From the IMG/VR virus record IMGVR_UViG_3300035183_000469, positions 3,578 through 67,577 of that record: a DNA stretch of 64,000 bases; one strand, written 5' to 3'. Source of the DNA: a virus. Positions 3,289 to 47,917 of this stretch are shown one piece after another. The notes under the pieces are model-generated. The model searched no databases. It worked only from the letters and a program-made list of their open reading frames with translations, and had not been told where the DNA came from. Positions within the stretch are counted from its first letter, which is position 1. Every line of letters starts with the position of its first letter. Both the position numbers and the translations under genes were made by a program.

Positions 3289-3877
3289 TGTCCGGTCGCT
3301 GGTAGAAATACGGTCATCGTTGTCTGCACGATACATCTTACAGAGTGACGAGCCGACGCTGTATTCGATCAAAAAGAAGGTGCCTGTCGGCGACGTCGCA
3401 CGTGTTGTCGCATCCGTTGCCAGGACGTGGTTAGAGAACAACGGATTAAAAGGGGATGCCACGCCGGCCGAGTTTGCCTATCAGATTCTCACCGGCGAGC
3501 CGACGTGGACGATGTTGGATGTGGTTCATTTCTTTGACTTCATCAGCAGCCATCAGCACGACGAGCGTCTGAAAGTGTTTGGAGACCGCATCACGCCGTT
3601 GCGTCTGATGGAGATGAAGGTCGTTTATGAAGAATATAAGGCCGAGGAACGGGAGCGGATATATCATGAGCATAAGACAGGCGACGTCATCACCGCCCGT
3701 GAGTCTATGGCGCAAGACCTGAAAAGCATCATGGGCAGAGAGTTTGAGTCGGTCATGATTCGCAATCAAGACAAGGCCATTCCAAAAGGAAACAGCGGCG
3801 AATCTTTTTTCCGTAATATGGAAAAAGAAATCACTTCGTCATTCCGTATCGGCGACGAAGTAAATCCTGCCAAATAA
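3182..3877 (+). CDS. Hypothetical protein, possibly helicase-loader/initiator partner (start uncertain)
   Basis: 231-aa ORF overlapping the previous gene and converging on TerL. Confidence 0.4.
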   Translation: MTVNSILSMLPQKENLHPKKTESLTRKLRVALEQCDVRSLVEIRSSLSARYILQSDEPTLYSIKKKVPVGDVARVVASVARTWLENNGLKGDATPAEFAYQILTGEPTWTMLDVVHFFDFISSHQHDERLKVFGDRITPLRLMEMKVVYEEYKAEERERIYHEHKTGDVITARESMAQDLKSIMGREFESVMIRNQDKAIPKGNSGESFFRNMEKEITSSFRIGDEVNPAK

Positions 3878-5894
3878 ACTTCCCCTTGTGTGGTGATGTA
3901 AAGTTCGGTGCCGGCTTGCCGTTTTTTATCCCGAAAGAAAAACTGGTGATTGGCTTGCGTACATGCCGGTCGTCCGGCAATACGTTGGATTGTATCAGGT
4001 CTTCATTGCTCATCACCTTCGTCGCAGGACGATAGCTCATGTCCTGGTCATACAACAGGCAGATGCGAAACGCCGAGATAATGTCTGTGTTGGTGTTTGG
4101 TCGCCCGCAGATGGCAAGCTGATTCAGAAACTGTATGTCGTACACGTTGTTTATCTCGGGAGACGAGATGAAGTCATTCAGCTTTAGGTCGGTTATGGCA
4201 ATCTCTGAACCCCGAACCTGATAGCCGAAGGCTTCGGCCGGACGTACTATTTTACCCATGACCAATGGATAGCGTTTCAGGTATCCCAGCGCATTTTTAG
4301 ACTTAAAGAACTCGTAGGGTGGCGATAGCTCTGCCTGATTGACGTTCATCTCAAAGGCGACCTCTGCCGAATAGTAACGAGCCGCCTTTAACACATCACT
4401 GTAAAACTCCCGCAGGCTGGGCGGACGGTACCAATACGTCATCACCGGTATCTTACAAGGCTGGTCGGCGCCGATGTAACGGCGATAGACCACGATGGCG
4501 CCCTTTGATGGCGACGAGTTCGTCTTGTCTTTCTGATAGTCATCCACGCCAATGATGTCGGCCTGACGGTACAGATGATTGATCGGATGGAGTGTGATAT
4601 GAAAACGTCCGGACTGGTCTGGGACAAAACGGATGCCGCCGGTGACCTTATATGCCTCCCCGTCATCTTCTTCGAGCCGTCCGTGCTGAACAAAGTTTTT
4701 GGCCATCGGGTCATCGGATATTGCCCGAATCCGTTCATTGACTCTGATGATATCCAATGACCCTTCCGTGGTGACAATGAACATATCACCCGGCGTGCGC
4801 GGATGGTTCTGCATGTACTTATACAAGTCTGTTTTGTCCGGCAACTGGCTCAATAGCTGTATATGGTGGTCTATATCTTCACTGGCCTCCTGTTCGAGCG
4901 ACTCGCCCGTTGTAAAGTCAAATGCATAATGTCCGTCTTTATTTTGTTTAGACACATAATGCCATTTGGTGTCAGGGATAAAGAACGGACGCAGGTTGAA
5001 GGCTTCCGGCTCATACCACATTACCTCATAGTCTGCCGTCGGGTTATTGATTTTATCAGAGGTGCCGGCCAGGATGATGATGCCGTTCTGCCGCCCTGCC
5101 TCCTGAACACAATCCACCGATTCCCAATAGGCCTGACGCAGCGTCGGCTTACGAGAAAACTCACCCACCTCGTCAATGAGCAGCGTCTTGAGCCACGATC
5201 CCTTTAGCACGCCGGCTTTGGTGAAAATCTTCTTAAACAGAATAGACTGACTTCCGCCGACAACCTCATTGCCCATCTCGTCCTTGTGGATAAACCCAAA
5301 CTGCATCTGCTCGGCATTGTCGTAGAGCATATTTTGATATATCTCTTTGGGAAGGTATTGAAGTCCGGTATACAGCTTTGGCATCGTAAGCAGTTGATAT
5401 TTCTCCTCCGGCACGGCAAATGCCGACTGATTCTTTGGATAGAACAACAGGTCATGTGCCAGCCATGACATACATATATCTGTCACTCCGGCGCGCCTGA
5501 ATTTGCCCACGATGCAGTTCACGCCATCCGCAAGACACCCCTCAAGATGCTCGGAAAACTCATGGTCAAAACGACGATACAGAGGCAGCGCGACGATTTT
5601 ATTGGCAGATACGCGTCCGTCAAACACAAACGGCTGACGGCTGATCTTCCAAAAGTTGAGATGGAAAAAATACTTGCCGCTTATTTTACTGTGTCCTGGC
5701 GGCTGGTATCCGTTCAGACACCAGTCCCAAACCTGATTCCAATAGTCATCATACGACTTACTTTCCGGGTCGAGGTTCGGGATGCCATCGGTGAGGATCG
5801 GCTGATAGGCACGATGCGGCGTCGCCGGTAAGGGCGGCGGCAACGGCGGCGGCGACGGACGCTCCCGCTTTCTGCGAGCCATTCGCTTGGTCAT
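3831..5894 (-). CDS. terL: Terminase large subunit (crAss-like)
   Basis: 'YWNQVWDWCLNGY...ISGKYFFHLNFWKI' N-terminus, Walker A-like GKFRRAGVT, Walker B LLIDEVG, GT coupling motif, nuclease 'IIGVDDYQ...SKGAIVVYRR', 'YYSAEVAFEMN', 'NTDIISA'. Confidence 0.93.
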   Translation of the reverse strand: MTKRMARRKRERPSPPPLPPPLPATPHRAYQPILTDGIPNLDPESKSYDDYWNQVWDWCLNGYQPPGHSKISGKYFFHLNFWKISRQPFVFDGRVSANKIVALPLYRRFDHEFSEHLEGCLADGVNCIVGKFRRAGVTDICMSWLAHDLLFYPKNQSAFAVPEEKYQLLTMPKLYTGLQYLPKEIYQNMLYDNAEQMQFGFIHKDEMGNEVVGGSQSILFKKIFTKAGVLKGSWLKTLLIDEVGEFSRKPTLRQAYWESVDCVQEAGRQNGIIILAGTSDKINNPTADYEVMWYEPEAFNLRPFFIPDTKWHYVSKQNKDGHYAFDFTTGESLEQEASEDIDHHIQLLSQLPDKTDLYKYMQNHPRTPGDMFIVTTEGSLDIIRVNERIRAISDDPMAKNFVQHGRLEEDDGEAYKVTGGIRFVPDQSGRFHITLHPINHLYRQADIIGVDDYQKDKTNSSPSKGAIVVYRRYIGADQPCKIPVMTYWYRPPSLREFYSDVLKAARYYSAEVAFEMNVNQAELSPPYEFFKSKNALGYLKRYPLVMGKIVRPAEAFGYQVRGSEIAITDLKLNDFISSPEINNVYDIQFLNQLAICGRPNTNTDIISAFRICLLYDQDMSYRPATKVMSNEDLIQSNVLPDDRHVRKPITSFSFGIKNGKPAPNFTSPHKGKFIWQDLLRRRYGMTK

Positions 5895-13828: not shown

Positions 13829-14183
13829 TATCCCGCCGCCGCCGATGTTCGCACCCCCTCTTTTTGTTGCACCCCCCCTCTATATCAATGTTGCATTGTA
13901 TAGAACCATGCGAAACACATTACAAGACATTAGAAAGTATATTTTTGAAAAAGGTACTTTTGTATATTAAAGTACTATGTAAGGCATACTACTACTCATA
14001 GAGCTTACCTGCGTCCCGGTGATCCGGTGATCTGGTGATCCTGTGTGTTCCATTATGTTCCTGTGCTTCCATTCGTGCAACCTTAACATTACATTAACAC
14101 AATATGGCACGAAATATTATTGTCCTTAAAATAGGACACTTTTTATGGCAACTGTCCTAAATTCTTACTTTAGTTTGGCTTCA

Positions 14184-14345
14184 TAACTCCCTGATTTTCA
14201 AGCACTTACAAATATGTGACATTCTGTCTGTATAGTATTTTGGACAATAGCACACAACAAACTGATTTTCAGCTACTTGTTAACACCCTGATAATCAACT
14301 ACTTACAACTGCCAAAATAGAAACACTTGATTTTCAAGCAGTTAC
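14184..14345. promoter_or_regulatory. Four imperfect palindromic IHF-like sites
   Basis: TAACTCCCTGATTTTCAAGCACTTAC, CAACAAACTGATTTTCAGCTACTTGT, TAACACCCTGATAATCAACTACTTAC, AAACACTTGATTTTCAAGCAGTTAC; the halves resemble WATCAANNNNTTR. Confidence 0.65.
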
Positions 14346-14349
14346 ATAT

Positions 14350-14469: not shown

Positions 14470-15087
14470 TGTGCGTTCATTGACATCGCGGTGGGTTTTT
14501 CATTTTTTCAAACCAAAAAACTATGAAAAACCAAACACAATCCACTGCACTGGCTCAAGGAGCCGGCAGCGTGGCGGAAATGGTAGAGGAGATCAACCCT
14601 TTTTTCATTCCTTCTACCATTGACGAAACAACATCGCCTATAAAGGTGATTGTGTACCAGGATGATACGAGGATCGAGTTCAACAACCTGCCAGCCGGGA
14701 TCGAATCTCAGAATGCTGGAAAATTCTTCGGGACGTTGTTGAACGTAGTTCACCAGCAGGCGAAATTCATGCACGAAATGGGCGGGCGAATGTTTAATTG
14801 TAAACTCCCGGTTCACATAAGAGTTGAACTCGGAGAAAACGTCTACGACTCATATCGGGCGATTCGACCTGAATTTCACAAGCGTTTAAGATTCGGTTAT
14901 TCGCCAAAAGTGTTCAAGCGCTTTGCGTCAAGACACTTCCGGGTCTTCACGAACGCTTGCACTAATTCAAGAGTGCAGGTGATTACTTTGAGTGAGTTTC
15001 TTAAAAGATTAACAGACAACCAACTAACAATCAACTAACAATCAACCAACCAATAACCAAACCCACCGCGATTTCAGATAACGCACA
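14470..15087. repeat. ~29-bp long-range inverted repeat enclosing ORF 14523-15038; left arm contains boxA-like GTTCATTGACAT
   Basis: Left arm TGTGCGTTCATTGACATCGCGGTGGGTTT (14470-14498) versus right arm AAACCCACCGCGATTTCAGATAACGCACA (15059-15087). Confidence 0.8.
14523..15038 (+). CDS. First early gene, unknown function
   Basis: A-rich leader (AAACCAAAAAACT-ATG), 171 aa. Confidence 0.7.
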   Translation: MKNQTQSTALAQGAGSVAEMVEEINPFFIPSTIDETTSPIKVIVYQDDTRIEFNNLPAGIESQNAGKFFGTLLNVVHQQAKFMHEMGGRMFNCKLPVHIRVELGENVYDSYRAIRPEFHKRLRFGYSPKVFKRFASRHFRVFTNACTNSRVQVITLSEFLKRLTDNQLTIN

Positions 15088-15149
15088 CATTTTATTTTTT
15101 TTGGCTACTTGTTTCTTCGATGAATAAATAGCCACAATTTTTTTACTCA

Positions 15150-15833
15150 ATGTGCGGTTAATGGCCGCATGGAAACGCTGCCGGGAGCAGCGAATATGCC
15201 CGCATCTGCTGACGGGAATCAGCAGCTCTGCTAACAATCGGCTAATGGCATAGCCGGGCACGGCCATCTTGTCGCATATTGCGTGGGTTGCTGACCAACC
15301 CTTCGCCGGTGCGTAAATTCCGGAGACAACGGTAACCAGCCGGCGGCGAAGCAGGGGAACGGATACTAACTCTGCGCGCGGTGAGAATAAATGGTCGGCG
15401 CGCCAATATCCAACCTTTTAGGTACATAGAAGGCGCAAAATAGATCGGGTGGACACGATCCCGATCCCGTGAGATGATTGTATAGTCCGCGGGGAGCGGT
15501 CTGTGGACGGCGGGGGGTACGCAAGCCCTCTTAATTCATTTGCCATATGACTGTAAACCGATAGGGAGGGGTCATTTCGTGTGCAGGAAGGTTGCAAAAG
15601 GATTGCAACGAGTTTACTTCCTGACATTGCCTGGACGTGAGACGAGGCACAAACGCAGTCTCCGACCCCAAACGAAACCAAGACAGCTCCGGGGGACAGT
15701 GACATCCCGTAGGGGCTGTAATCAATATGGGCACCGCGCAGCCCGGATGATGCGCGTATGATGGGAACGGACACCCCGGAAAAACCGAACCTACCGGGGC
15801 AAGAAGTATTTGCTTGTCCCGGTATTTTTTTTT
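15150..15833 (+). ncRNA. Large structured non-coding RNA candidate (~680 nt)
   Basis: At least 14 helices visible, including nested multibranch domains, G-U pairs and GNRA-type loops; no credible ORF; ends in an intrinsic terminator. Confidence 0.7.
15792..15833 (+). terminator. Intrinsic terminator
   Basis: TACCGGGGCAAG-loop-CTTGTCCCGGTA followed by T9. Confidence 0.85.
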
Positions 15834-15891
15834 GCCGGCAGGTTAACTGACGAGCGCCGGCCGAAACACAACAGGATGTTGTGTCTTAACC
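15834..15891 (+). ncRNA. Hammerhead ribozyme, type I
   Basis: Stem I GGTTAA/TTAACC; core CTGACGA; 1-bp stem II whose loop CGCCGGC can pair with 5' GCCGGC; GAAA; stem III CACAACA/TGTTGTG; GUC cleavage triplet 15883-15885. Confidence 0.9.
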
Positions 15892-15898
15892 AAAAACT

Positions 15899-17161
15899 AT
15901 GAGTGAATTAAAAATTGCCTCCTCATTCAGGAGGTATCTTGAACAAAAATCAAAGGTATCAAAAGTAGCCGAAAGACTCCTAAACCCCGAATTTGTTAAC
16001 ACGAAATTCGGGAACTTTCTCTCACTTAAAGCCGGGATGATCGGCTACATGCCGGCCGGAAAAACACAAGAGATAAACGAGGACGGCACGTGGGCGCGTT
16101 CCGGTCGCCAACATGCACGGGCGGCACGTGTGGCACGTAAACTCCTGAATGAAAAAGGACTTGCCGGACTAACAGACAAAGATTTTGAGATATTCAGCAA
16201 TATTGTTTTTGCCACAGAAGAAAAAGGAAAAATAAGTATTGTCTGTGGCGAAGATATTAGGTGCTGGTACCATTATCGGAAATATTCCGGCAAAAACACC
16301 GGAAGCTTGTCGGAATCATGTATGAGGTACGATCGGTGCCAGCCGTACTTAGACATCTATACATCTAATAAAAATGTCGTCTCCATGGTCATCATGACCG
16401 ATGAAGACGACCTCCTAATAGGAAGAGCCCTCCTTTGGGAGAGCAAAGGAAAGAAATTCATGGATCGAATCTATGGTGATGACACAACCATAGAGACCTT
16501 CCGTAACTACGCATCCGATAACGGATGGTATTATCGGAAGTACAACACATACCATGACGAAACATGGTGGGTAGACTTCAAGGGGAGGGAGGTGGAAAAA
16601 AATGTTGAGGTCAAACTCGAAAAATGGGAGTTTGACCAATACCCGTATATGGATACATTCAAGTATCTGTATCCCGGTTGTGTTAAAAATTATGATAATG
16701 ACGCTATCAGCGTCCTCACCTCAACCGACGGCGGTGGCGGTGAAGATCGCGTGTGGTCGGATTACCACGACCGATACATTTTAAGAGAGGATTCGGTAGA
16801 CGTTCCCGGTTACGGCATTGTGCATATAGACGTAACGAGAACGTGCGAATACTGCGGTGACCTCTTCCATGAGGACGACCTTCGCGTAGGAGAAAACGGA
16901 AATATGTATTGTTATGACCATTCAATCAGACTCCACGACGGAAGCGTGTATAGTCAATCAGAAATAGATAACGATAACATTGTATATGTTCAAAGTATGA
17001 ATGAGTATGCACTCATTGATGACTGTATGATATGCGAGCATTGCAACGAGTACTTCTTCGCCGGACAAGAAACAGAGGTCACCGATAGCAACGGGGTGTC
17101 GCATCTGTTCTGTTGCGATAATCACGCGGATATGTTCTTAAACTCAGATGAAGACAAATGA
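15899..17161 (+). CDS. Phage early protein (SCM...GRALLW...DRIY family) with C-terminal Cys/His zinc-binding repeats
   Basis: GSLSESCMRY; YLDIY; IGRALLW; FMDRIY; YPYMDTF; several CxxC/CxxH motifs. Confidence 0.65.
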   Translation: MSELKIASSFRRYLEQKSKVSKVAERLLNPEFVNTKFGNFLSLKAGMIGYMPAGKTQEINEDGTWARSGRQHARAARVARKLLNEKGLAGLTDKDFEIFSNIVFATEEKGKISIVCGEDIRCWYHYRKYSGKNTGSLSESCMRYDRCQPYLDIYTSNKNVVSMVIMTDEDDLLIGRALLWESKGKKFMDRIYGDDTTIETFRNYASDNGWYYRKYNTYHDETWWVDFKGREVEKNVEVKLEKWEFDQYPYMDTFKYLYPGCVKNYDNDAISVLTSTDGGGGEDRVWSDYHDRYILREDSVDVPGYGIVHIDVTRTCEYCGDLFHEDDLRVGENGNMYCYDHSIRLHDGSVYSQSEIDNDNIVYVQSMNEYALIDDCMICEHCNEYFFAGQETEVTDSNGVSHLFCCDNHADMFLNSDEDK

Positions 17162-21136: not shown

Positions 21137-21352
21137 ATGAAAAACATATTCATCTGTGCATGGTGCGAAACACCGTCTCAGATAGACGAAGACTCAGTAG
21201 ATGAACGCCGGTATTCCGGTCATATCTTCTGCTCAATGGAATGCCGCAACCGGTATTATCTATACCGGCTCCGGCGTAATCAACCGATTAAAAAAAATAT
21301 GTGTTGTGAGAGTGTTATCAAGAACGGGTGGGATAGTACACGCTTCCTTTGA
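21137..21352 (+). CDS. Small zinc-finger protein
   Basis: CAWC...FCSMEC motif. Confidence 0.5.
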   Translation: MKNIFICAWCETPSQIDEDSVDERRYSGHIFCSMECRNRYYLYRLRRNQPIKKNMCCESVIKNGWDSTRFL

Positions 21353-22904
21353 TTATCAGTCCGACATTTTAGCGCTGGTAAAAAATATCCGTGGGCGGAA
21401 GTGGGTGCCAACCAAACGACGATGGGACATCCCGTTGGCATCGGATACAGCCGACAAAATACGGCTCCTGATAACCAGGTCTGGATTTCAGGACAACGGA
21501 GGAATCATGGCAGAAATTGACCGTCTGTCAAAAGACGAGTTAATATATCTGCGACTGTCGTCCGCCGCAGACGGCGACTACCATGTTCACGGGTTGCGTC
21601 GAGACCTGCGTGGCTATCAGAAGTCCGGTGTGGAATACGGAATTAAAAGCCGCCGTCTTATCATCGGCGACCCGCCCGGAGTCGGTAAGACGTGGCAAGC
21701 CATCGGCATTGTCAATGAATTACAGGCATATCCTTGTCTTGTGGTATGCCCGTCCATAGTAAAAATGAAGTGGGCGAAGGAGTTTTCCGAGCTCCTCGAA
21801 CAGCCACGTACTATTCACGTGGTTAGCGGAAAAGACTTCCGCAGGGCAGACATCGTAATCATCAACTATGATGTTCTGAGGCAAAACCAGGATGCGATTA
21901 TGGCTTCCGGGTTTGCGTCCGTGATAGGCGACGAATTTCATAGGATAAAAAACCCAAAGTCACAAAGGGGGAAGGCGTTGGTGGCTATTGCTAATGGCAT
22001 TGAACTGAAAATAGGACTTTCAGGCACGCCGATTGTCAATGCGCCAAAAGATTTGGTTAACCAACTCAAAGCCATCGGGCGACTGAGTGAATTTGGTGGT
22101 GAATGGGGATTCTATAAAGACTTCTGCGATCTTCGCAAGGAGTTTTATGGATACACCTATGACGGCGCCACCAACCTTGGCGAGTTAGACCGAAGAATGC
22201 GTGGCGGTGGCATGTATGTACGTAGGGAGAAATCCGCGGTTCAAAAAGACCTGCCGGATAAAACTATCGAACGGGTGGACGTGCAGGTACATACTATGCC
22301 GGAATACATGGTCGCCCTGTCAGAGTCAAGGAAGATCATGACATCAAACCTGTCTGCGATAGACAGGGAGCGACAGATGATGACCATGCGGCTGCGGTTG
22401 CAGCGCATCACGGCCATGGGCAAACTTCCCTTTGTTAAGGAGGCGTTGGACGACCTTGTTTACAATGGAGAAAAGGTCGTAGTATTTGCCTTCTTCCGGC
22501 AAGTAATAGCGGAGATCGCATCGTGGTATCCGTCTATGACGGCAACCCTTACTGGTTCTGATTCGATGGAAGAGAAGTGGCGCAAGAACCAATCCTTCCT
22601 GACCGACCCGTCATGCCGCATCATTGTATGCAGCACGGAGATAACGGAAGGAATTGATTTGGTAAGCGCCGCCACCAGCATACACTCCGAGCTTGTGTGG
22701 ACGTATGCAAAACTTGAACAAAATATGGATCGGCTTCACCGAATAGGACAACGACAGCCGGTAACAGCTATCATCCCGGTTGCCAATACGTCGTCCGACC
22801 GGGCAATGTGGAAAGCAATCCAGCGGAAGGCAACATATTCACTGTCAGAAAGTGATATGATGCGGCAAATTTTGATGGAAGAAAATTTGGAAATAATAAA
22901 ATAA
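21201..22904 (+). CDS. SNF2-family helicase (HARP/SMARCAL1-like annealing helicase)
   Basis: N-term HARP-like 'VKNIRGRKWVPTKRRWDIP'; LRGYQ; GDPPGVGKT; DEFH; LSGTPIVN; QNMDRLHRIGQ. Confidence 0.9.
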   Translation: MNAGIPVISSAQWNAATGIIYTGSGVINRLKKICVVRVLSRTGGIVHASFDYQSDILALVKNIRGRKWVPTKRRWDIPLASDTADKIRLLITRSGFQDNGGIMAEIDRLSKDELIYLRLSSAADGDYHVHGLRRDLRGYQKSGVEYGIKSRRLIIGDPPGVGKTWQAIGIVNELQAYPCLVVCPSIVKMKWAKEFSELLEQPRTIHVVSGKDFRRADIVIINYDVLRQNQDAIMASGFASVIGDEFHRIKNPKSQRGKALVAIANGIELKIGLSGTPIVNAPKDLVNQLKAIGRLSEFGGEWGFYKDFCDLRKEFYGYTYDGATNLGELDRRMRGGGMYVRREKSAVQKDLPDKTIERVDVQVHTMPEYMVALSESRKIMTSNLSAIDRERQMMTMRLRLQRITAMGKLPFVKEALDDLVYNGEKVVVFAFFRQVIAEIASWYPSMTATLTGSDSMEEKWRKNQSFLTDPSCRIIVCSTEITEGIDLVSAATSIHSELVWTYAKLEQNMDRLHRIGQRQPVTAIIPVANTSSDRAMWKAIQRKATYSLSESDMMRQILMEENLEIIK

Positions 22905-38647: not shown

Positions 38648-41600
38648 TCACTTGGCCGTGCCAAGTGTGGTTGTCATCGTATAGATTTTGTATGGCAGCC
38701 CCATACCCTGTACGGCCACCTTCATCGTTTTATCCGCCCCTCTAATGAACCGCTCCCTTGCTTCTGCGCTGTCCTCAAGGCTCGTGGCGCTATAAAAGTC
38801 CGCCACCGCATCCATGGACTGATTAACCAAATCAAGAGCCGGATTATCAATGTCGTTTCTCCATTTATATTCATCTACCCTTGACCATATCCCGGAGCCA
38901 ATGGCTCCCATGATAGGAAAGTTGCCCATAAACTCTCGTCCGGCACCAATGAACAGGCTTTTGACGTCGTCATCATCGTCCTTTTTACGGTATCCGGATA
39001 TCTGCATATTCAATAAATTGACTGCCGCAACCCAGAAAGAATTGTAAATGCCAACATTGATAAGATAATTTCTGAACGTTGAGAAATTCTTGGACGTAGG
39101 GTTGTTTAGATACCTAAACCACGATTCGCTCATTAGGTTGTATTGCTTTTGCAACTGACCGGTAAACAGAAACACGCCACGCATCAAAGGATTATTGCTT
39201 CGTTGCAACGGCGTTTTCGTCACCGGGTCATAACCATGTTGCGTCCGCAACACCACCTCCTCTGCATAGTACGCCACCTTTTTATTGAACGCCTCCGACC
39301 CCGGCTGTAAATCAGGAAACCGCTTGGCCACATCCAGCTTCACTGACTCCACAATACCAATAATAGTGGCATTGTCTGAAAACCGTATCGGCTTCATCCC
39401 CTCGTCTCCTATTCTGCGAACCACCCTCTTGGTGTTGCCCCATGTGTCCTTGCTGTATGGTGACGCATCGCCAAATGGATTCATAGACGATGTCGCATTC
39501 ACTTCATACACAATGCTGTCCGACATCCCAAGCATCCTATTGTATAATGCGGGCGAATACTTTTTTATGAACGCAATCGTATTGGCTGCGCCGGCGGCAT
39601 TCTGCCATTTGGCCACTGATAACACATTCGTCCTAAGTACCAATGGAAGATTATACCATAGGCTGCCTGACGAAACCATCTGATTCGCCATCGAATAGCT
39701 GATGCCCTGTTTTAAGAACGCAGAAAAGTTGAACGCAAGACGAGAAACGCCATAGTTGCGCATGATGGTGCTGAACGTCTTGTTCTGGTCTACCCGCAAA
39801 AACTTAAACGACGTGTCTACGGCATCACTAATATACCGGTCTATCCAGTCCACCTCCTGACCAAATCCCTTATTGCGCAACTCACGTCCATTGTCGTTGC
39901 GGAATTTTATCAGGTTGTCAAGCGGAACTTTATATGCCACATAATTTGACATGCCGTCAATATACCGTCTGACCAGCGTCAAGGCGTCCACCAACGCCAA
40001 CGCGTCTTTCGACCGCGTCCTTGGTTTCAGGAAACTCATGTCACCAACCATCCTCTGCGAAGCCAGATGAAAATTCTCGTGTTCGCCACCAATAATAATC
40101 GGGAAATACTCATCCACCAGCCGTAACGCCATGCCTGTGTCTATCTCGTACTGCCGGCTGATACGGTCAGCAAAGGTATCTCTGAGAGACGCCCACGCTT
40201 TGGCAAAAGCACTGTATTCAGGTGTATTGTCCACGATCTCAGACATGCGCATAAAATCGTCCTCATTAAACCGCATCCGTCTCACCTTGTCACGGTCTAT
40301 ATGATAATCGGCACCACTTCCATGAATGGTCACACCGTCATCATCCACCACATCCATCCGCCCATCACGCTGCCCTCTCTGACGAAGAGATAATACCAAC
40401 GAAAGAAACTCGCCCTTCGTTATCTCGTGTTCAACCCCGTCATACGTTGTAAATTTCTGTTTTTCTATATTGGCAAAACTGTCCGGGTTTCCCTCGGTGC
40501 TCCCCTTCATAATTGCCTTAAACACCGGCGCCATAATCTCACGCCCAACCATCTGCATCTCATTGGCCACACGCCATCCGTTCATTAAAGGGCGCACCAG
40601 CAACTTATACCCAACGGAATCCTCAGACCCAAACAGACGCACCCCAATGGTGTTTATGTTGCTTCCAAGAAGTGACATTTTCTTTACAGCACGGCGCGCC
40701 GCAGAAGAAAGACCAGACAGCCTTCCATTCATAATGGGCAACAATGCCCTGGCGATAACATTTTTTTTCAGCGTGTTCTGTTGCCTGGCGTGGGTGTCAT
40801 CTATCTCACCTACCATCGCTGCATTTGCTCTCGTGGCATCAACCGCAGTACCGCTTGCTGTAATGTAGTTATTCTGCCGAACTCGCTGCTGCTCAATAAA
40901 TGCCTGCATCGCCATCAGACGATGACGAAGCAACGCGGTCTTTGAATCAAGAGCAACGTCTCTGGGGTTGTTCAAATAATCCATCAGGTTGTTCATGACA
41001 ACCTTGTCCGCAAGCGCCTCATTCACTTCCGCACGAAATGTCTTACTGAACTGCTCCGATTCGCCAATAGCATCCATCATACTGGGTACCTCAACAAATG
41101 TCCCATCATCCAACCCGACCCTCCTCCGTGTTCCGTTGACCATGTTGCGTATACCGCGCTCAGGGTCGCCCTTGAACCTGCCCATCTCCTTGCGTAATGC
41201 ACCGTCCAAATGACTCGACACCTCTAAAGTTCCGGGTGACATAATAGGCGATTCCATATTACCAAAACTGATCGGGTCGCCATATGCATCCTTTACAAAC
41301 GAAACCGCCGTAGTGTCCACAAGGCCAAGACGAGAAGTAATCTCCGGCGACGTCATCGCATTCTTGAAATAAGTAAAAACAGAATAGATGTCACGCTGTA
41401 TCCCTGTAAACGAAGACGGGTCATTACCCCATGTGCCATGCCTCAATTCATCCCACATCGCCTCCGCAAACCTTTCCTTCCCGCCATTCCGGTTAATAAT
41501 ACTTTGTATCTCAGGCTTGACATACAATGCTTCGACTACCTGTGCTGATGCCTCTCTGGTCATAACTCCCATCAAAGCATCTAAGTCATCGGTTTTCATG

Positions 41601-44600
41601 TTTGCCCATTGCATGATAGATGACAGTTTTTTATCAGGCATCTCGTCAAGGTCAACCCCCTGTGTCGTCTTTAGTATGCTCTTCACATCAGCCGCATCGG
41701 ATTCCCTTGACATCACCTTTGCAATCCTCGATACGTTCTGATTGATACGGAACGGATCGTGAAATACCCCATCCTTGTCCCGCGTCCGCATCTCCTCCGG
41801 CTTAATTTCTCCATCTTGTTCTCTGTGTTTTGCCTGTTCAATTCTAATATCATATCCACTCATCTTCGTGATCTCCTTGCCGGAAAGCATCTTCTTTGAA
41901 GCCTTATGTGCAAAATCCTCTATTCGCATATAAGCCACATCCTCGCTCCCTTCATATCCAAACGCCTGTTTGATACTGTCCCAAAACTTACGATACCACC
42001 GAACAAGACGCTCCATTATGGGACGGTTGCCATACAATACGTTCATATAAGACTTGTCTATCACATGCTGCAACGCCTCCTCATAAAGGCGATCCCCATC
42101 CAACTCAGGATACATTTTTTTGATCTTGGACAAAAATCCCTTAGCCTTTGAAACCAACATCATTCCTTCGCGCCATAGCTTAGGATCGTGTACTTGTATG
42201 TACTCCGTCCATATGTGCCCAAATTCATGCATGAGCTGCCCCGGATGCATGCGCTCTTTATTCAAATAAATCGCTCCATCCCTTCCAACAAATCCGATAA
42301 CACTTTCTTCTGTTGCGCCATGACGTCTTTGGGCAGCACTAAAATCTTCGGATTCCAATATGTGTGTCCGAACATTCGGAAATGCTTTTCTTAGCAAGAA
42401 AAGAACTCTGCCTATTTGCTCGGTAATCCCACCGGATTGTCTGTCTGTATCCCGACCGGATTGTCTTTCTCTTTTCTCCTCTGGGGGTAAGTCCCTGTCT
42501 GGACGTTCCCCTGTATAGTCTTCTTCCGATGTTTTATCAGGAGACTCTTGTATGGCAGGTGCTTTATCTGCCCCTTCTGTGTTCGTACTATCATTTTCTT
42601 TAGGTTTACTTGATGACATTTTATTGCTATCGGCAGCTGGCTCGACATGCTTCGCCTTAATAGATTCCGCTTCTGCCATCATCCCACCAATCACTTCCTT
42701 CTCCGCAAAAAACATTCTTGAATATATTTCAATAACGTCTTGGTTAAGTTCATTGATGTCTCCAAAGTATTCTATTGCGCTTTCAATCTGCTGCTTGAAC
42801 CACTTGGCAAATTTTTCAAAAACCCTTCCTATGCTTGTTTTAGTGTCAGAAAAATGTCCTTCATATATTACCCTTTCCGCTCCCTTTGCAAAAGCCTCCG
42901 AAAATTCAGTTGTGCCTTTCTTATGACCGCTCCACTTCTCGACTACTTCAATTTCTTCATGAGTAAGAACGTCTTCAAACTCATGTGCCTTCTCGTGAAA
43001 AATCGTGGTTATATCTGATTTTTTTCCAAATACAGTCAGCGACTTCCCATTCTTCTTGACGATAGCACCTTTACCCTTTTGCTCTAAAAATTGATTACCA
43101 TGCTTCAATAGCGGCATATAAACATTACCACCAACTGAGTCGAACGCCTTTGTTTCTAATTTAGTCAGGCTATTCATCAAAACATCCCCCCCCGCCTTAT
43201 CGAACGCCTTTGTTTTTATGGTGGTCAGATTATTCATCCAAACACTCCCACTGGTTGAGTCGAACGCCTTTGTATTTAGGGTGGTCAGGCTATCCATCGA
43301 AACACTCCACCCAGCCGTATCGAACGCCTTTGTATTTAGGGTGGTCAGGCTATCCATCGAAACACCACCCACAACCGCTGAGTCGAAAGCCTTTGTATTT
43401 AGGGTGGTCAAGCCATTCATAGAAACATTCCCACCCGCCGTATCAAACGCCTTTGTATTTAATTCAGTCAGGCCATTCATCGAAACATCCAACCCGGCCG
43501 TATCGAACGCCTTTGCATTCAGGGTGGTCAGTTTATTCATCAAAACATCCCCTCCAGCCGTATCGAAAGCCTTTGTTTCTAATTTAGTCAGTTTATCCAT
43601 ATAAACATTCATCCCCGCTGTATCGAACGCCTTTGTATTTAATTCAGTCAGGCTACTCATATAAACATTCCTCCCCGCTGTATCGAACGCCTTTGTTTTT
43701 AATTTAGTCAGGCTATTCATATAAACATCCCACCGCACCTTATCGAATGCCTTTGTATTTAGGGTGGTCAGGTTTACCATATAAACACTCCCTCCAGCCG
43801 TATCGAACGCCTTTGTATTTAGGATGGTCAGGTTTTCCATATAAACATTCTCCCCAGCCGTATCAAACGCCTTTGTATTTAATTCAGTAAGGCTATTCAT
43901 CGAAACATCCAACTCCACTGTATCGAACGCCTTTGTTTTTAATTCAGTCAGACCATTCATAAAAACATTCAACGCTGAGTCGAACGCCTTTGTATTTAGG
44001 GTTGTCAGGTTATTCATCCAAACACTCCCTCCAGCCGTATCGAATGCCTTTGTATTTAGGGTGGTCAGGTTTTCCATATAAACAGTCCTCTCAGCCGTAT
44101 CGAAAGCCTTTGTATTTAATTCAGTCAGGGCATTCATCGAAACACTCCCTAAAATATGTGATGCGATCTTTCTTGTCAGCACACTTTCTTCTATTTTCAC
44201 ATCCCCTATCACAACAGCATTATCGTCCCAATTTTTTTCTGTGAACTCAGAAGAATAAAATACATTTTCTTCTGTCGTATCAAAGGCTTCTGCATAATCT
44301 TTTTTTGTTAAACTTTTCTTTGCATTTTCTAAATTATCAGTTCTATCCTTGTAATATTTTTTCCCGTAAATAATTGCAAGTTTTTCATCCTTGCTTAATT
44401 TAGAAGTATCTCCGTTTGCCTTTTTCAAACTTAATAAAGCATCTGAGTAGTTCATGTAATTCTCTAATGGAGCAAATGATATTTCTTTATGCGTATTCTT
44501 AAACGCAATAAAATCAGGCAAATCAATATCCCTTATGCCTTGCCCTTCCAGCAATCCGCCTATCTCTATGGCACTATTGCCGCTAACATGAAGCTGTAAT

Positions 44601-47600
44601 GTCGGATTGTTCTCTTTATTGGAATAGAAAATATAAATGTCCCCTGCATCCAAGTAGCTTTTCGCAGTTTCTTTACTACCTCCGGTACACCAACCACCCT
44701 TATACATACCAGATAATGCAGACATTTGATAAAACCTATCCACATCACCAGGAACATCCCGATTGAATTTGTACCATGTTCCTGTTGTCGTTTGATGATC
44801 TATATTACCTTCATATTGGCTTGTGTCTATCTTGGCTCCATTATAGTTGGCCTGTTCGTAGTAGTAATCGTGTATGACATTATTCGATGATTGTGCATAT
44901 GCAGTGGTTTTGTCAAGAAAAAGTGAAACAGGTGATTCGTGCATCGAAGCTGTTTCTTTCGTTCGCGGCTTTTTTGAAAACTTATCAGTAGCCTTATCGT
45001 AAGAAAAATCAAACTTCGTAATATTCTCCAGCACCAAAAGTTTCATCCCAAGCGGATATTCAGATGCTGAACGCAAATAACTTATTGTGCCAACTAAATT
45101 ATTCTTTTGTAGTTCCCTGTGTTTTGTGATATATGCATCCTTATCATTTTTAATCCCCTTCCACATTTCAGCCACCATAGAATTACCTGCCGATTCAGAC
45201 ATATCTATCTGTTTATCAATGTATGTGTCGGATAGGCTCTGAATGTAAAAATCATCTGTATTCTTTGCCCTATCTTCAAATAGAGCAAGTTCGGATTTCA
45301 TGGCTTTTATTACACCATCAATGTCTCTTGCATTTGCTAATATACGCTTGCCAGTTTCAGAACTGACTAAATACTTTATTATCCACTGATGTTCCAGATT
45401 CTCCGTATTAAATCCAAAATTCTTTAGTTTGGGATTATTTTGTGCTGCATTTTTCAAATTATCATTTGGCTGCATAAGAATCTCTGCCTCACCTTCTGTC
45501 TTGAGGTCACCGTAAATAGCATTGAATTGCTGCAATGCTTCTTTCGTGTCTATTGGAGTTTTGACCCTAACGGCACGATTTGATTTGAGATAATCTTCAA
45601 ACGATACCCCCAACCGCTTTGCGATATTCCTGCCTACGTTCATTATCACGGGAATAACTTTACCCCTCTGTTCTTTGTTTGGCAGAACGGATTCTAATAC
45701 TTTACGTATCCGGGATTCTGCTGCATTGTCATAAGTTTCTCCAATTTTTCTTCTCGTGTTTGTACTTACATCTATGATACCATCCTTTCTTGATGTGTTG
45801 CTACCCAATAGTGTATCGTAAAAATTATCATTAACTCTAATGTCAAATTCACCACTCAATCTTGCTTTCAAAAATTCCCTAAAAGCAGATGGTGTATTAT
45901 TCTCAGAATAAACAAAGCCATTTTCCCGGAGTAAACTCTGAGTCCTATCTACATCATATCCCTTTTCTTTAGCTTTATTTATTAAGTGTTCAACTTCTTC
46001 AATTTCAGATTCTGTTAATTCTCTATATTCCCCGTCTGGATTATACTTAACAACAGAATTAGCCCTTCTTCCTTCAAATCTTTTTAATATATCCGCTTTT
46101 TTATCTTCTATATCTTTATTCGTATTCTCCTTAGCCACCCTCGCCCGGTCAATATGATCTTTGGTCATCTCAGACAATGTCTGCAACGGCAATATTTTCC
46201 CTTCGCTCGGTCGCGCAACATACTTATTAAACGCATTCATGGCATGCTTGGCATCGCCGAATCCGGCATCCCGCGCATAGCCGGACATCGCATCATAATC
46301 CTCTTTGCTTAATCCATCGTAAAGGTTCTTCTTCACCTCTTTGGCCACATTCGGTCTTTCTTTTTCCAATACACTAAACAATGCCGAACTGATCTCTCCC
46401 TCAGGCAACACCCCCTCCTTCAACACCCTTTCCATTAACCCATTGATGGTATCTATCTGTTTCCCGTAATACGCTGTATCAGACGCCAAATCTCCTTCCA
46501 CGAGATTCTTTACCACCGGATCAAGCGTCTTTGTCCGTTCACCGACAACACTTGTCGTATCATCTAAAAGACCATCATAGACCTTTCGGTTGTAAAACAA
46601 ATCAAACAACTGCTTGCGTGCCTGTTCATTTGCCGTAGTGTATTGCTTCGGGAAACGCTCATTAAACTCCGTCACTGCACTAATCATTCGGTCTATATTA
46701 TCGAAAATATTATTTCGCTCAGACGCATTCATTTTTCCGGCTTCCACGCGCTCGTTTACCTTCCGTTTGATATACGACACCTGACTATAATCACCCGTCT
46801 CAACTGCTTTCTTTATCACCTGATGCGCCGAATCGTAAACGATGGGGTGAAGCATCCCAAGGCTGCCGGAAAAAGCCATGCCGGTAAGCGCAGAGAAAAG
46901 AACGTCGGAAAACAATTCCTTCATCTGCTCCTTACTACCAAACTCAGGGTATCCGAATTTCCCCCGCCCCGGCTCAGACGATACATCAGAAAAATATGAG
47001 TCGTATATGTCTGTCGCCGCATCATGGACGGCGGCAGATAAACCGGTAAACGTGGCAAACTGTAAACCACCCTCCGCCCCATGCAATATAAACTGCTTCG
47101 CATAATCAACGCTACGATCAGCCATACCATCTATCACCGGCCTTACATAATCCCTGAAAGCAATATCAGACAGCTTTTTGCCGCCAAACTGCTTCTGCAC
47201 ATCATCAATGGTCGCCCTTGTAACACCACGCGCAAAATTTCTCATGGCGGTCTTGTCCAGCAGATTGGATACGCCCCGAAAAGAAACTGCTGCTGCCGCC
47301 AACCCAGTCATGGCCATCATCGGCGCCATATAATCAAAATCTTTTCCGGTAATGCCAGCATTTTTAAGCTCGTCCACCGAAGCCGTAAGAAGCTGTGCAC
47401 CAAATGTAGCTGTAGATGCTGCCTTCTGTATAGCAGACGCCCCCTTTGATACACCCAACAATGACGGGATAATACCAGACTCGGAAAAAGTTGAAGAAAG
47501 TAATGACAATGCGCCAATCCCTTCGGTCGCAAACGCAATCGTTACGATAGGCAACACCATTCCGATCAGGCTCCCCATCCCCCGCATAAAATTTCCTGCG

Positions 47601-47917
47601 GATGGATGCTTCATAAAGTCAAACTCATCCATCCCCCCCATGGTGTATATCGGGAACTGTTTGCTTACCGAATCTGTCCACTTTTGCATTAACGCATGCG
47701 CATCGGTATCTTCCGGAAGAAAAAAATTTGCCGTAACAGGAATAGCCATCTCAAACCCCTTTGCCGTATCAGCAAAGCCCTTTAACACACGATTCCGCAC
47801 ATCCTGCATCACCGTGAGGTCGCTCGGCTCAATAGGATTGTAATTCAACGGCGGCGTGCCAAATACGTCGTCATATAAGACAGCTCCCCTTTTAGTATTT
47901 ACTGTTGTTTCAGGCAT
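38648..47917 (-). CDS. Giant virion/ejection polyvalent protein (3089 aa)
   Basis: Hydrophobic N-terminal helices; WCTGG domain; 17 x 20-aa repeats; two HExxH motifs (HEKAH, HEFGH); helical C-terminus; lies after the tail genes. Confidence 0.8.
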   Translation of the reverse strand: MPETTVNTKRGAVLYDDVFGTPPLNYNPIEPSDLTVMQDVRNRVLKGFADTAKGFEMAIPVTANFFLPEDTDAHALMQKWTDSVSKQFPIYTMGGMDEFDFMKHPSAGNFMRGMGSLIGMVLPIVTIAFATEGIGALSLLSSTFSESGIIPSLLGVSKGASAIQKAASTATFGAQLLTASVDELKNAGITGKDFDYMAPMMAMTGLAAAAVSFRGVSNLLDKTAMRNFARGVTRATIDDVQKQFGGKKLSDIAFRDYVRPVIDGMADRSVDYAKQFILHGAEGGLQFATFTGLSAAVHDAATDIYDSYFSDVSSEPGRGKFGYPEFGSKEQMKELFSDVLFSALTGMAFSGSLGMLHPIVYDSAHQVIKKAVETGDYSQVSYIKRKVNERVEAGKMNASERNNIFDNIDRMISAVTEFNERFPKQYTTANEQARKQLFDLFYNRKVYDGLLDDTTSVVGERTKTLDPVVKNLVEGDLASDTAYYGKQIDTINGLMERVLKEGVLPEGEISSALFSVLEKERPNVAKEVKKNLYDGLSKEDYDAMSGYARDAGFGDAKHAMNAFNKYVARPSEGKILPLQTLSEMTKDHIDRARVAKENTNKDIEDKKADILKRFEGRRANSVVKYNPDGEYRELTESEIEEVEHLINKAKEKGYDVDRTQSLLRENGFVYSENNTPSAFREFLKARLSGEFDIRVNDNFYDTLLGSNTSRKDGIIDVSTNTRRKIGETYDNAAESRIRKVLESVLPNKEQRGKVIPVIMNVGRNIAKRLGVSFEDYLKSNRAVRVKTPIDTKEALQQFNAIYGDLKTEGEAEILMQPNDNLKNAAQNNPKLKNFGFNTENLEHQWIIKYLVSSETGKRILANARDIDGVIKAMKSELALFEDRAKNTDDFYIQSLSDTYIDKQIDMSESAGNSMVAEMWKGIKNDKDAYITKHRELQKNNLVGTISYLRSASEYPLGMKLLVLENITKFDFSYDKATDKFSKKPRTKETASMHESPVSLFLDKTTAYAQSSNNVIHDYYYEQANYNGAKIDTSQYEGNIDHQTTTGTWYKFNRDVPGDVDRFYQMSALSGMYKGGWCTGGSKETAKSYLDAGDIYIFYSNKENNPTLQLHVSGNSAIEIGGLLEGQGIRDIDLPDFIAFKNTHKEISFAPLENYMNYSDALLSLKKANGDTSKLSKDEKLAIIYGKKYYKDRTDNLENAKKSLTKKDYAEAFDTTEENVFYSSEFTEKNWDDNAVVIGDVKIEESVLTRKIASHILGSVSMNALTELNTKAFDTAERTVYMENLTTLNTKAFDTAGGSVWMNNLTTLNTKAFDSALNVFMNGLTELKTKAFDTVELDVSMNSLTELNTKAFDTAGENVYMENLTILNTKAFDTAGGSVYMVNLTTLNTKAFDKVRWDVYMNSLTKLKTKAFDTAGRNVYMSSLTELNTKAFDTAGMNVYMDKLTKLETKAFDTAGGDVLMNKLTTLNAKAFDTAGLDVSMNGLTELNTKAFDTAGGNVSMNGLTTLNTKAFDSAVVGGVSMDSLTTLNTKAFDTAGWSVSMDSLTTLNTKAFDSTSGSVWMNNLTTIKTKAFDKAGGDVLMNSLTKLETKAFDSVGGNVYMPLLKHGNQFLEQKGKGAIVKKNGKSLTVFGKKSDITTIFHEKAHEFEDVLTHEEIEVVEKWSGHKKGTTEFSEAFAKGAERVIYEGHFSDTKTSIGRVFEKFAKWFKQQIESAIEYFGDINELNQDVIEIYSRMFFAEKEVIGGMMAEAESIKAKHVEPAADSNKMSSSKPKENDSTNTEGADKAPAIQESPDKTSEEDYTGERPDRDLPPEEKRERQSGRDTDRQSGGITEQIGRVLFLLRKAFPNVRTHILESEDFSAAQRRHGATEESVIGFVGRDGAIYLNKERMHPGQLMHEFGHIWTEYIQVHDPKLWREGMMLVSKAKGFLSKIKKMYPELDGDRLYEEALQHVIDKSYMNVLYGNRPIMERLVRWYRKFWDSIKQAFGYEGSEDVAYMRIEDFAHKASKKMLSGKEITKMSGYDIRIEQAKHREQDGEIKPEEMRTRDKDGVFHDPFRINQNVSRIAKVMSRESDAADVKSILKTTQGVDLDEMPDKKLSSIMQWANMKTDDLDALMGVMTREASAQVVEALYVKPEIQSIINRNGGKERFAEAMWDELRHGTWGNDPSSFTGIQRDIYSVFTYFKNAMTSPEITSRLGLVDTTAVSFVKDAYGDPISFGNMESPIMSPGTLEVSSHLDGALRKEMGRFKGDPERGIRNMVNGTRRRVGLDDGTFVEVPSMMDAIGESEQFSKTFRAEVNEALADKVVMNNLMDYLNNPRDVALDSKTALLRHRLMAMQAFIEQQRVRQNNYITASGTAVDATRANAAMVGEIDDTHARQQNTLKKNVIARALLPIMNGRLSGLSSAARRAVKKMSLLGSNINTIGVRLFGSEDSVGYKLLVRPLMNGWRVANEMQMVGREIMAPVFKAIMKGSTEGNPDSFANIEKQKFTTYDGVEHEITKGEFLSLVLSLRQRGQRDGRMDVVDDDGVTIHGSGADYHIDRDKVRRMRFNEDDFMRMSEIVDNTPEYSAFAKAWASLRDTFADRISRQYEIDTGMALRLVDEYFPIIIGGEHENFHLASQRMVGDMSFLKPRTRSKDALALVDALTLVRRYIDGMSNYVAYKVPLDNLIKFRNDNGRELRNKGFGQEVDWIDRYISDAVDTSFKFLRVDQNKTFSTIMRNYGVSRLAFNFSAFLKQGISYSMANQMVSSGSLWYNLPLVLRTNVLSVAKWQNAAGAANTIAFIKKYSPALYNRMLGMSDSIVYEVNATSSMNPFGDASPYSKDTWGNTKRVVRRIGDEGMKPIRFSDNATIIGIVESVKLDVAKRFPDLQPGSEAFNKKVAYYAEEVVLRTQHGYDPVTKTPLQRSNNPLMRGVFLFTGQLQKQYNLMSESWFRYLNNPTSKNFSTFRNYLINVGIYNSFWVAAVNLLNMQISGYRKKDDDDDVKSLFIGAGREFMGNFPIMGAIGSGIWSRVDEYKWRNDIDNPALDLVNQSMDAVADFYSATSLEDSAEARERFIRGADKTMKVAVQGMGLPYKIYTMTTTLGTAK
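43118..44137 (-). repeat. 17 coding tandem repeats of ~60 bp (MxxLTxLxTKAFDxAGxxVx), LRR/L-domain-like solenoid
   Basis: CGAACGCCTTTGT recurs with a ~60-bp period; one 19-aa and one 21-aa unit. Confidence 0.95.

Follow-up and report, generated by a model that had tools for sequence, protein, structure and literature searches.

Hammerhead ribozymes are reported to be common in phage and prophage DNA, where their biological role is still described as a hypothesis (PMC3088659; 2019 review PMC6765202). According to Perreault et al. (2011) they cluster in prophages, and the proposal made there is that phage hammerheads process long transcripts to give gene-length mRNAs (PMC3088659). According to this paper, pseudoknots are found in each of the three hammerhead types, and about 40% of hammerheads use one that joins stem I to stem II; it also describes a type II hammerhead of metagenome origin that is active with a one-pair stem II and a pseudoknot. 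In that ribozyme, loop I pairs with the 3' tail that follows an open stem II, and the resulting 6-bp pseudoknot takes the place of the loop-loop contact; at 0.5 mM Mg2+ fast cleavage depends on it (PMC3088659). A search for papers on hammerheads with a single-base-pair stem II and a pseudoknot found none from 2012 onward, supplements being outside its scope.

Two curated Rfam families are relevant. The type I hammerhead RF00163 (Hammerhead_1, clan CL00010) has the hammerhead core in a three-way junction with an open stem I and a GUC cleavage site, and its stem II usually has two or more pairs. In the consensus of the RAGATH-1 hammerhead, RF03152, a single pair forms stem II and closes a 7-nt loop, stem I has 5-6 bp, and GAAAC and a GUC site are present; an extra hairpin (model positions 1-25) lies upstream, a linker of about 7 nt setting it apart from stem I. 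The name RAGATH was not found in the main text of PMC5737381, the supplements of which may describe RAGATH-1 and similar variants, and the papers traced for RAGATH-1 deal with RAGATH-18. Finally, type I hammerheads are found in the 5' UTRs of fungal and plant RNA viruses, where self-cleavage is reported to be essential for the initiation of translation (PMC13725137).

The sequence analysed here, referred to as the window, is a stretch of 64,000 nucleotides from a complete virus record of 67,577 bp with direct terminal repeats. It contains, on the + strand, a site that we take, with a probability of about 0.8, to be a genuine compact type I hammerhead which, on read-through RNA, would free the mRNA of the gene for a 420-aa protein by its predicted cut.

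The hammerhead at 15834-15891

Reading of the region 15600-16100 showed that all the elements of a type I hammerhead are present at 15834-15891 (+). Stem I consists of GGTTAA (15841-15846) and TTAACC (15886-15891), which form 6 bp. The 5' strand is followed by the catalytic core C3-A9, CTGACGA (CUGACGA in the RNA, 15847-15853), and the second part of the core, G12 A13 A14 (GAA), lies at 15863-15865. Between them, stem II is reduced to the single pair G10.1-C11.1 (G15854 and C15862), which closes the 7-nt loop II, CGCCGGC (15855-15861). Stem III is a hairpin of 8 bp (15866-15884) in which ACACAACA (15866-15873) pairs with TGTTGTGT (15877-15884) around a GGA loop, the A15.1-U16.1 pair (A15866 and U15884) being counted within it. 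The next base, C17 in hammerhead numbering (15885), completes the GUC site, and the predicted scissile bond lies between 15885 and 15886, so that the 3' strand of stem I would provide the first six bases of the 5'-OH product. The site has, therefore, the full class core (C3 U4 G5 A6 N7 G8 A9, G12 A13 A14, A15.1-U16.1 and a non-G at position 17) with three helices around it. The earlier note had assigned the type I class, the stems, the core, the GUC site and a cut after 15885, and each of these elements was found where the note had placed it.

Immediately 5' of stem I, and separated from it by a single A (15840), is the sequence GCCGGC (15834-15839), which can pair with the last six bases of loop II (15856-15861). 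The resulting 6-bp pseudoknot connects stems I and II, and would stand in for the tertiary contact between these stems that fast natural hammerheads need. As a duplex it was calculated to contribute -11.7 kcal/mol, compared with only -4.1 kcal/mol for stem I. The geometry is plausible: with the 6-bp helix stacked on C11.1, its deep groove would be spanned by the single base C15855, and the single base A15840 would join the far end of the pseudoknot helix to that of stem I, likewise of 6 bp. Both arms read GCCGGC and are palindromic, so in this one sequence pairing cannot be distinguished from a repeat and the case for pairing rests on the related ribozymes described below. A dimer of two molecules held together through the palindromic loop II was considered and set aside, because relatives with non-palindromic arms keep the intramolecular complement.

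A descriptor for type I hammerheads was written which called for at least 4 bp in each of stems I and III, together with the core, G..C, GAAA, A15.1-U16.1 and any base but G at position 17. It matched exactly one site on both strands of the 64-kb window, and no site in 400 simulated 64-kb sequences (first-order Markov, with the dinucleotide make-up of the window). No match to type II or type III descriptors was found among the 30 CTGANGA sites of the window. Chance does not, therefore, explain the site.

The Rfam models, which the earlier note had put forward as a check, did not recognise it. With Rfam 15 no family reached its gathering score in the whole window, and for 15700-16000 no hammerhead family was returned at E values up to 10. 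Neither RF00163 nor RF03152, the latter with a gathering score of 56.3 bits, listed the site at this cut-off. Two matches were returned for 15700-16000, both at chance level and neither to a ribozyme (mir-4742, E 0.63; ST7-OT4_3, E 3.4).

Sibling hammerheads and the conserved pseudoknot

Close relatives of the locus were not found at the DNA or protein level. Searches of phage records with megablast and blastn gave no match, and the 420-aa and 397-aa proteins identified no related loci in viral contigs. The ribozyme itself was, therefore, used as the search target.

A first pattern combined the core with the stem II region of the window. It returned one further full hammerhead in viral contigs (L002) and four in metagenome contigs (L014, L018, L029 and L036). 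The sequences of stems I and III in these siblings are wholly different from those in the window and are nevertheless still paired. The rest of the first-pattern loci were rejected: L003-L009 were chance matches inside coding sequence, as were 26 of the 31 metagenome loci and all 11 loci from genome contigs. Among these 26 was L023, which has stems of only 3 bp.

A second pattern allowed any loop II of 6-9 nt but fixed the start of stem III as it occurs in the siblings, a start that is absent from the window. This gave 76 viral loci, and 19 of the 75 new ones passed the descriptor. These 19 comprise seven with a tail pseudoknot (five of them distinct), two that are RAGATH-1-like, five with an ordinary stem II and five that are doubtful, having 4-bp stems and a long stem III. 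The five distinct tail-pseudoknot siblings, L054, L072, L076, L091 and L107, have a one-pair stem II and loop sequences other than that of the window. Duplicates were counted once, L032 being the contig of L002, L117 the same as L091 and L119 the same as L072. Both L014 and L029 contain a second copy of the hammerhead. A third, looser pattern gave at least 106 new loci, with at least 28 distinct descriptor matches among the matches listed; at least seven of these have a one-pair stem II and a pseudoknot of 5 bp or more within 4 nt of stem I. These third-pattern forms lie outside the set used for comparison, which consists of 13 sequences, the window and 12 siblings.

Five members of this set (L002, L014a, L018, L029a and L036) were found with a pattern that contained loop II of the window, and L029b, which was found with the model described next, has the same loop II as the window. 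These six are, therefore, not independent evidence for the loop.

A covariance model, R1, was derived from no sequences other than the five siblings of the second pattern. These come from other viral contigs, the window was left out, and the pattern by which they were found has only the universal core in common with the window. When R1 was run against the window with filters off, it matched 15828-15895 with 38.9 bits (E about 3e-9) and the runner-up had 9.7 bits (E 1.1), these E values being rough as the calibration was short. In the whole 67,577-bp virus record the match was the only one. The site also has the spacing of the tail-pseudoknot family, its pseudoknot arm ending 7 nt before C3 and the distance from the start of the arm to the end of GAAA being 33 nt.

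These results bear on the possibility that the site resembles a hammerhead by chance, or is a decayed copy which has lost the ability to cut. Such a reading would account for the absence of an Rfam match, and a one-pair stem II is marginal when it has no tertiary support. Decayed copies do occur, as the sibling at L029:292-356 has an altered core, TTGATAA, and the first-stage scan covered so many windows that rare chance matches are to be expected somewhere. Against this, the descriptor found nothing in the simulated windows and an independently built model separated the site clearly from its runner-up. The core is intact, stems I and III have 6 and 8 Watson-Crick pairs, the arm is at the exact 7-nt spacing of the family, and the site is intergenic and, like its siblings, close upstream of a start codon. 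A look-alike or a dead copy is thus very improbable.

The 13 sequences were aligned by fitting them to R1. On this alignment 94.4% of cells are paired and 10 of the 14 pairs vary on both sides, namely all six pairs of stem I and four of the seven modelled pairs of stem III; the G-C pair of stem II is invariant (13/13). None of 500 shuffles reached the observed value for any of five measures. As an alignment fitted to the model structure favours pairing, the fairer control is one in which the partners are slid by 1-3 columns, and this gave only 31-49% paired.

The pseudoknot is conserved as well. Each of the 13 sequences has in its 5' tail a stretch that is complementary to the final six bases of loop II, and the helix so formed has 6 bp in 11 cases and 5 bp in two. 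Six helix sequences occur (GCCGGC/GCCGGC, GCCCAG/CTGGGC, CCCGG/CCGGG, GCCCGC/GCGGGC, TCCCAG/CTGGGA and TCCGGC/GCCGGA), and L036 has a G-U variant. The arm ends 7 nt (10/13) or 8 nt (3/13) before the core, and in nine of the 13 the stretch that begins with the arm and finishes with GAAA is 33 nt long. The mean helix length is 5.85 bp, whereas 2000 shuffles of the flanks gave a mean of 3.80 bp (sd 0.22) and a maximum of 4.69 bp. On the MAFFT alignment used for the pseudoknot counts, in which four of the 13 rows are one column out of register, 84.4% of cells are paired, four of the six pairs show changes on both sides and the covariation score is 0.262 versus 0.091. The pairing between loop II and the 5' flank that the earlier note had read from the single sequence is thus kept by the siblings as a helix of 5-6 bp, in the same two places and with differing sequences. 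Contigs from two DNA sequencing runs are identical to the window over 15000-16500, and so they offer no variants with which to examine the pairing.

Compared with RF00163, the window has the same core, three-way junction, open stem I and GUC site, but its stem II has one pair and its stems I and II make contact through the 6-bp pseudoknot with the 5' tail. The sibling L054 scored 20.3 bits with RF00163, against a gathering score of 34. RAGATH-1 is the closest curated family: the one-pair stem II with its 7-nt loop, GAAAC, the GUC site and the length of stem I are all shared with the form in the window, and RF03152 was the best Rfam family for the siblings (36.2, 29.6 and 21.8 bits), although these matches cover model positions 26-77 only. 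One locus out of twelve, L060, reached a hammerhead threshold, with 59.7 bits for RF03152. The sequence of L060 and its loop II suggest that the upstream hairpin of RAGATH-1 contains the bases with which loop II pairs. For the window and the 12 siblings, by contrast, these bases belong to a simple single-stranded tail, which is 0-3 nt away from stem I. The only hairpin upstream of the ribozyme in the window is a terminator (see below), and nothing in the loop of this hairpin, AAGUAUUUG, is complementary to loop II.

The 2011 type II form (PMC3088659) resembles that of the window in having a one-pair stem II and a 6-bp pseudoknot. The arrangement in the window, with loop II paired to the 5' tail ahead of an open stem I, is a circular permutation of the type II design as it is described there. 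A single-pair stem II is referred to as 'one case' in that paper, whereas it is the rule in the present family of at least 13.

Position between cistrons and possible function

The ribozyme lies in an intergenic gap, 7 nt before the start codon of a 420-aa ORF at 15899 (ATG)-17161 (+). Seven leader bases, beginning at 15892, separate stem I from this codon. An AUG at 15899 preceded by a 13-nt A-rich leader had been predicted in the earlier note, and the sequence, UUAACCAAAAACU, agrees with this. The earlier note was also right in placing a terminator directly upstream: a hairpin resembling an intrinsic terminator is present at 15792-15824 (+), with 12 bp, a 9-nt loop and a calculated energy of -20.1 kcal/mol, and is followed by a run of nine T (15825-15833, +) that ends one base before the ribozyme. 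A consensus scan had missed this terminator because its loop exceeds the limit of 8 nt set in that scan. The presence of a terminator at this position implies that the ribozyme can be part only of RNA that results from read-through, or of RNA from a polymerase that does not respond to the terminator.

The protein encoded downstream matches no Pfam or PHROG family, and its relatives in the Atlas are exclusively viral clusters annotated as 'hypothetical'. By tblastn, homologs with 27-31% identity were found in Cellulophaga phages and uncultured phages only, those with 29-30% identity belonging to Cellulophaga phages of the Pervagoviridae. By this protein the Cellulophaga phages are the closest relatives in culture. 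No hammerhead was found at the matching loci of the Cellulophaga phages Calle_1 and phi40:1, where the best R1 match was 7.4 bits and Rfam reported only a tmRNA. The genes of the window have no Shine-Dalgarno sequences and have A-rich leaders. Taken together with the homologs in Cellulophaga phages, these leaders suggest a Bacteroidota-type host. A motif of the Bacteroides promoter type has four matches in the window, which is no excess over shuffled sequences, and none is near the ribozyme.

Elsewhere the phage encodes a large terminase subunit (3831-5894, -), a helicase (21201-22904, +) and several DNA methyltransferases. No tRNA or tmRNA was found in the window. An RtcB ligase, an enzyme that would suit the ends left by hammerhead cleavage, is absent from the phage genome.

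The gene context of the siblings is similar in position. In 12 of the 13 ribozymes an ORF of at least 40 codons begins 6-36 nt after stem I, and for nine of the 12 siblings the end of an open frame of at least 89 codons falls within -1 to +20 nt of the arm of the pseudoknot. The downstream proteins, on the other hand, differ. A VWA domain was found in one of the ten examined and a PHROG match in none of them, and blastp at 1e-3 gave no similar pair among the sibling proteins. As the position is shared and the downstream families are not, the conserved feature is the site between cistrons and not a particular gene.

A role in transcript processing would fit these sibling contexts. In the proposed mechanism, read-through of the terminator would give an RNA that contains the ribozyme, which would fold and cut itself between C15885 and U15886. 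The 5' product, ending in a 2',3'-cyclic phosphate, would consist of the upstream RNA followed at its 3' end by the terminator and the body of the ribozyme. The 3' product would be the mRNA of the 420-aa gene, with a 5'-OH and the 13-nt A-rich leader, which contains no Shine-Dalgarno sequence. This leader should be easily released, because stem I is weak. Through cleavage in vivo, we infer, the downstream cistron would become independent of the upstream RNA in both its stability and its translation.

The weakness of stem I is also compatible with a real ribozyme whose main job is translational. Here stem I would hold the first six bases of the leader, and cleavage followed by release of the stem would switch on translation of the internal cistron by freeing an A-rich leader of the kind found in front of a first cistron. 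The leaders of the window, A-rich and lacking Shine-Dalgarno sequences, are in keeping with this, and over 24 nt the leader predicted to result from cleavage (TTAACCAAAAACT-ATGA) shares 75% identity (family D5) with that of gene 14523, which is the first gene to follow a repeat-rich control region (14182-14349). This likeness would fit cleavage that gives an internal gene a 5' end like that of a first gene. Moreover, in L054, L072 and L091 (3/13) the 3' strand of stem I is GGGAGG, 6-7 nt before ATG, and so is itself the Shine-Dalgarno sequence. In the other ten, however, the Shine-Dalgarno sequence or the leader lies outside stem I, and a stem of 6 bp and -4.1 kcal/mol may not impede ribosomes.

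The hammerheads of fungal and plant RNA viruses offer a precedent for translational control, being placed, like that of the window, just before an ORF and leaving a short 5'-OH leader on cleavage, as reported in PMC13725137. These viruses are eukaryotic and their initiation is cap-independent, with different machinery, and no homology to the ribozyme of the window is implied. Overall, a mainly translational role for the ribozyme of the window seems unlikely.

The sequence upstream suggests another possibility, that the ribozyme is real but serves the upstream RNA. The region 15150-15833 has a GC content of 0.52-0.58, compared with 0.457 for the window, and contains no + strand ORF above 73 aa. 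None of the five ORFs tested in this stretch (four on the - strand of up to 118 aa, and one of 73 aa on the + strand) has a PHROG match. The stretch folds with z = -2.49, and its final element is the terminator directly next to the ribozyme. Cleavage of read-through molecules could then serve to trim a GC-rich non-coding RNA of about 680 nt (about 15150-15833), giving it a defined 3' end with a compact structured tail and a cyclic phosphate, and any effect on the downstream mRNA would be secondary. The terminator alone, however, already defines a 3' end, and the non-coding RNA is only putative: Rfam gave nothing for 15039-15840 at E values up to 5, and blastn against phage records found no relatives of it. 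Furthermore, a non-coding RNA is found in front of no sibling among the 12, nine of which come after an ORF; in being preceded by a strong terminator and a GC-rich non-coding stretch instead of the stop codon of an ORF, the site in the window is unlike most of its siblings. Trimming of an upstream RNA as the main function is, on this evidence, quite improbable, and processing of read-through RNA to release the mRNA of the 420-aa gene is the preferred reading.

A more speculative proposal, which we regard as doubtful, goes further. The family would be a distinct, uncatalogued sub-family of type I hammerheads, marked by a one-pair stem II and a tail pseudoknot at a fixed 7-8 nt from the core, and would serve phages as a maker of start sites activated by cleavage. 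Stem I would hold the leader to which the ribosome binds, and the cut would leave the internal cistron with a short leader, free, with a 5'-OH and resembling that of a first gene. If this were true, expression of gene 15899 would be tied to read-through of the terminator that ends the large non-coding RNA.

Meaning for phage hammerheads

Judged by its sequence, the site is a new example of a known ribozyme class, in a compact form with a tail pseudoknot that falls below the thresholds of the curated models. Knowledge of the hammerhead class itself is unchanged by the finding. At least 13 siblings lie below current Rfam thresholds, and a dedicated model would recover them in viral metagenomes. 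The window provides a clean case for experiment: a complete phage genome of 67.6 kb with a single ribozyme between a strong terminator and a gene that has no Shine-Dalgarno sequence. The layout that is conserved, a stop codon or terminator, then the ribozyme, then a start codon 6-36 nt further on, makes the idea of a 'cistron separator' or 'leader maker' directly testable with reporters. The significance of the finding would grow if this arrangement of a ribozyme followed by a start codon controlled translation.

The GC-rich stretch upstream of the ribozyme

Upstream of the window ribozyme lies a GC-rich, ORF-poor stretch of about 680 nt (15150-15833, +), with a GC content of 0.52-0.58 vs 0.457 for the window. 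On its 5' side is a weak terminator-like hairpin (15102-15134) followed by T7, and on its 3' side a strong terminator (15792-15833, +). The sequences TATTTTTTTTGGC (15093) and TATTTTTTTTTGC (15823) flank it. Folding of the stretch gave a z-score of -2.49. Rfam returned no match to it at E values up to 5, no tRNA or tmRNA was found within it, its small ORFs had no PHROG match and blastn against phage records gave no match. In distantly related Cellulophaga phages a tmRNA (87 bits) was found near the homologous gene. Elsewhere in the window, a 3,089-aa ORF (38648-47917, -) had no PHROG match at 1e-5.

Repeats, leaders and a ligase gene

A motif of about 26 nt, with the core TGATTTTCAAGCA.TTAC, occurs four times at 14182-14349 (+), spaced by 26-71 nt, in the divergent region 5' of gene 14523. 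The four copies resemble a repeated array of promoter or operator sites. The leader and first codons of gene 14523 (14503-14526) are similar to those of gene 15899 (15879-15902), the gene directly downstream of the ribozyme, with 75% identity over 24 nt and the common pattern AACCAAAAA(A)CT-ATGA.

RtcB joins 2',3'-cyclic phosphate to 5'-OH ends. This RNA ligase was not found in the window's genome; it is encoded by cultured relatives, as in Cellulophaga phage Calle_1 (L128, locus 6581 onward), and in the Cellulophaga relatives a few kb separate it from the 420-aa gene's homolog.

Hammerheads and other ribozymes in other contigs

A type I hammerhead at L081:1280-1339 (-), with an identical copy in L098, shares with the window ribozyme both the stem I GGTTAA/TTAACC and an A-rich leader lacking a Shine-Dalgarno sequence, but differs from it in having an ordinary stem II (3 bp, tetraloop) and no pseudoknot. 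In L063 a 69-aa ORF lies between a pair of type I hammerheads, both of which have an ordinary stem II. Type II-like hammerheads were seen in viral contigs that also carry type I forms, namely at L018:8442-8471 (-) and near positions 3725, 4053 and 5320 of L083 (+).

The 2,048-base contig L014 is rich in ribozymes: two tail-pseudoknot hammerheads each precede a 119-aa ORF, and two twister-like matches fell under threshold (40.4 bits vs 67.2 and 32.3 vs 37.6). A Twister-P5 match above threshold (40.6 bits) lies about 1 kb upstream of the hammerhead in L036.

In the sibling at L029:292-356 (-) the stems and pseudoknot are unchanged and the core reads TTGATAA, so that C3 has become U and G8 has become A; in the active hammerhead fold, positions 3 and 8 are paired with each other. 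This sibling is either a decayed copy or a compensated core variant.
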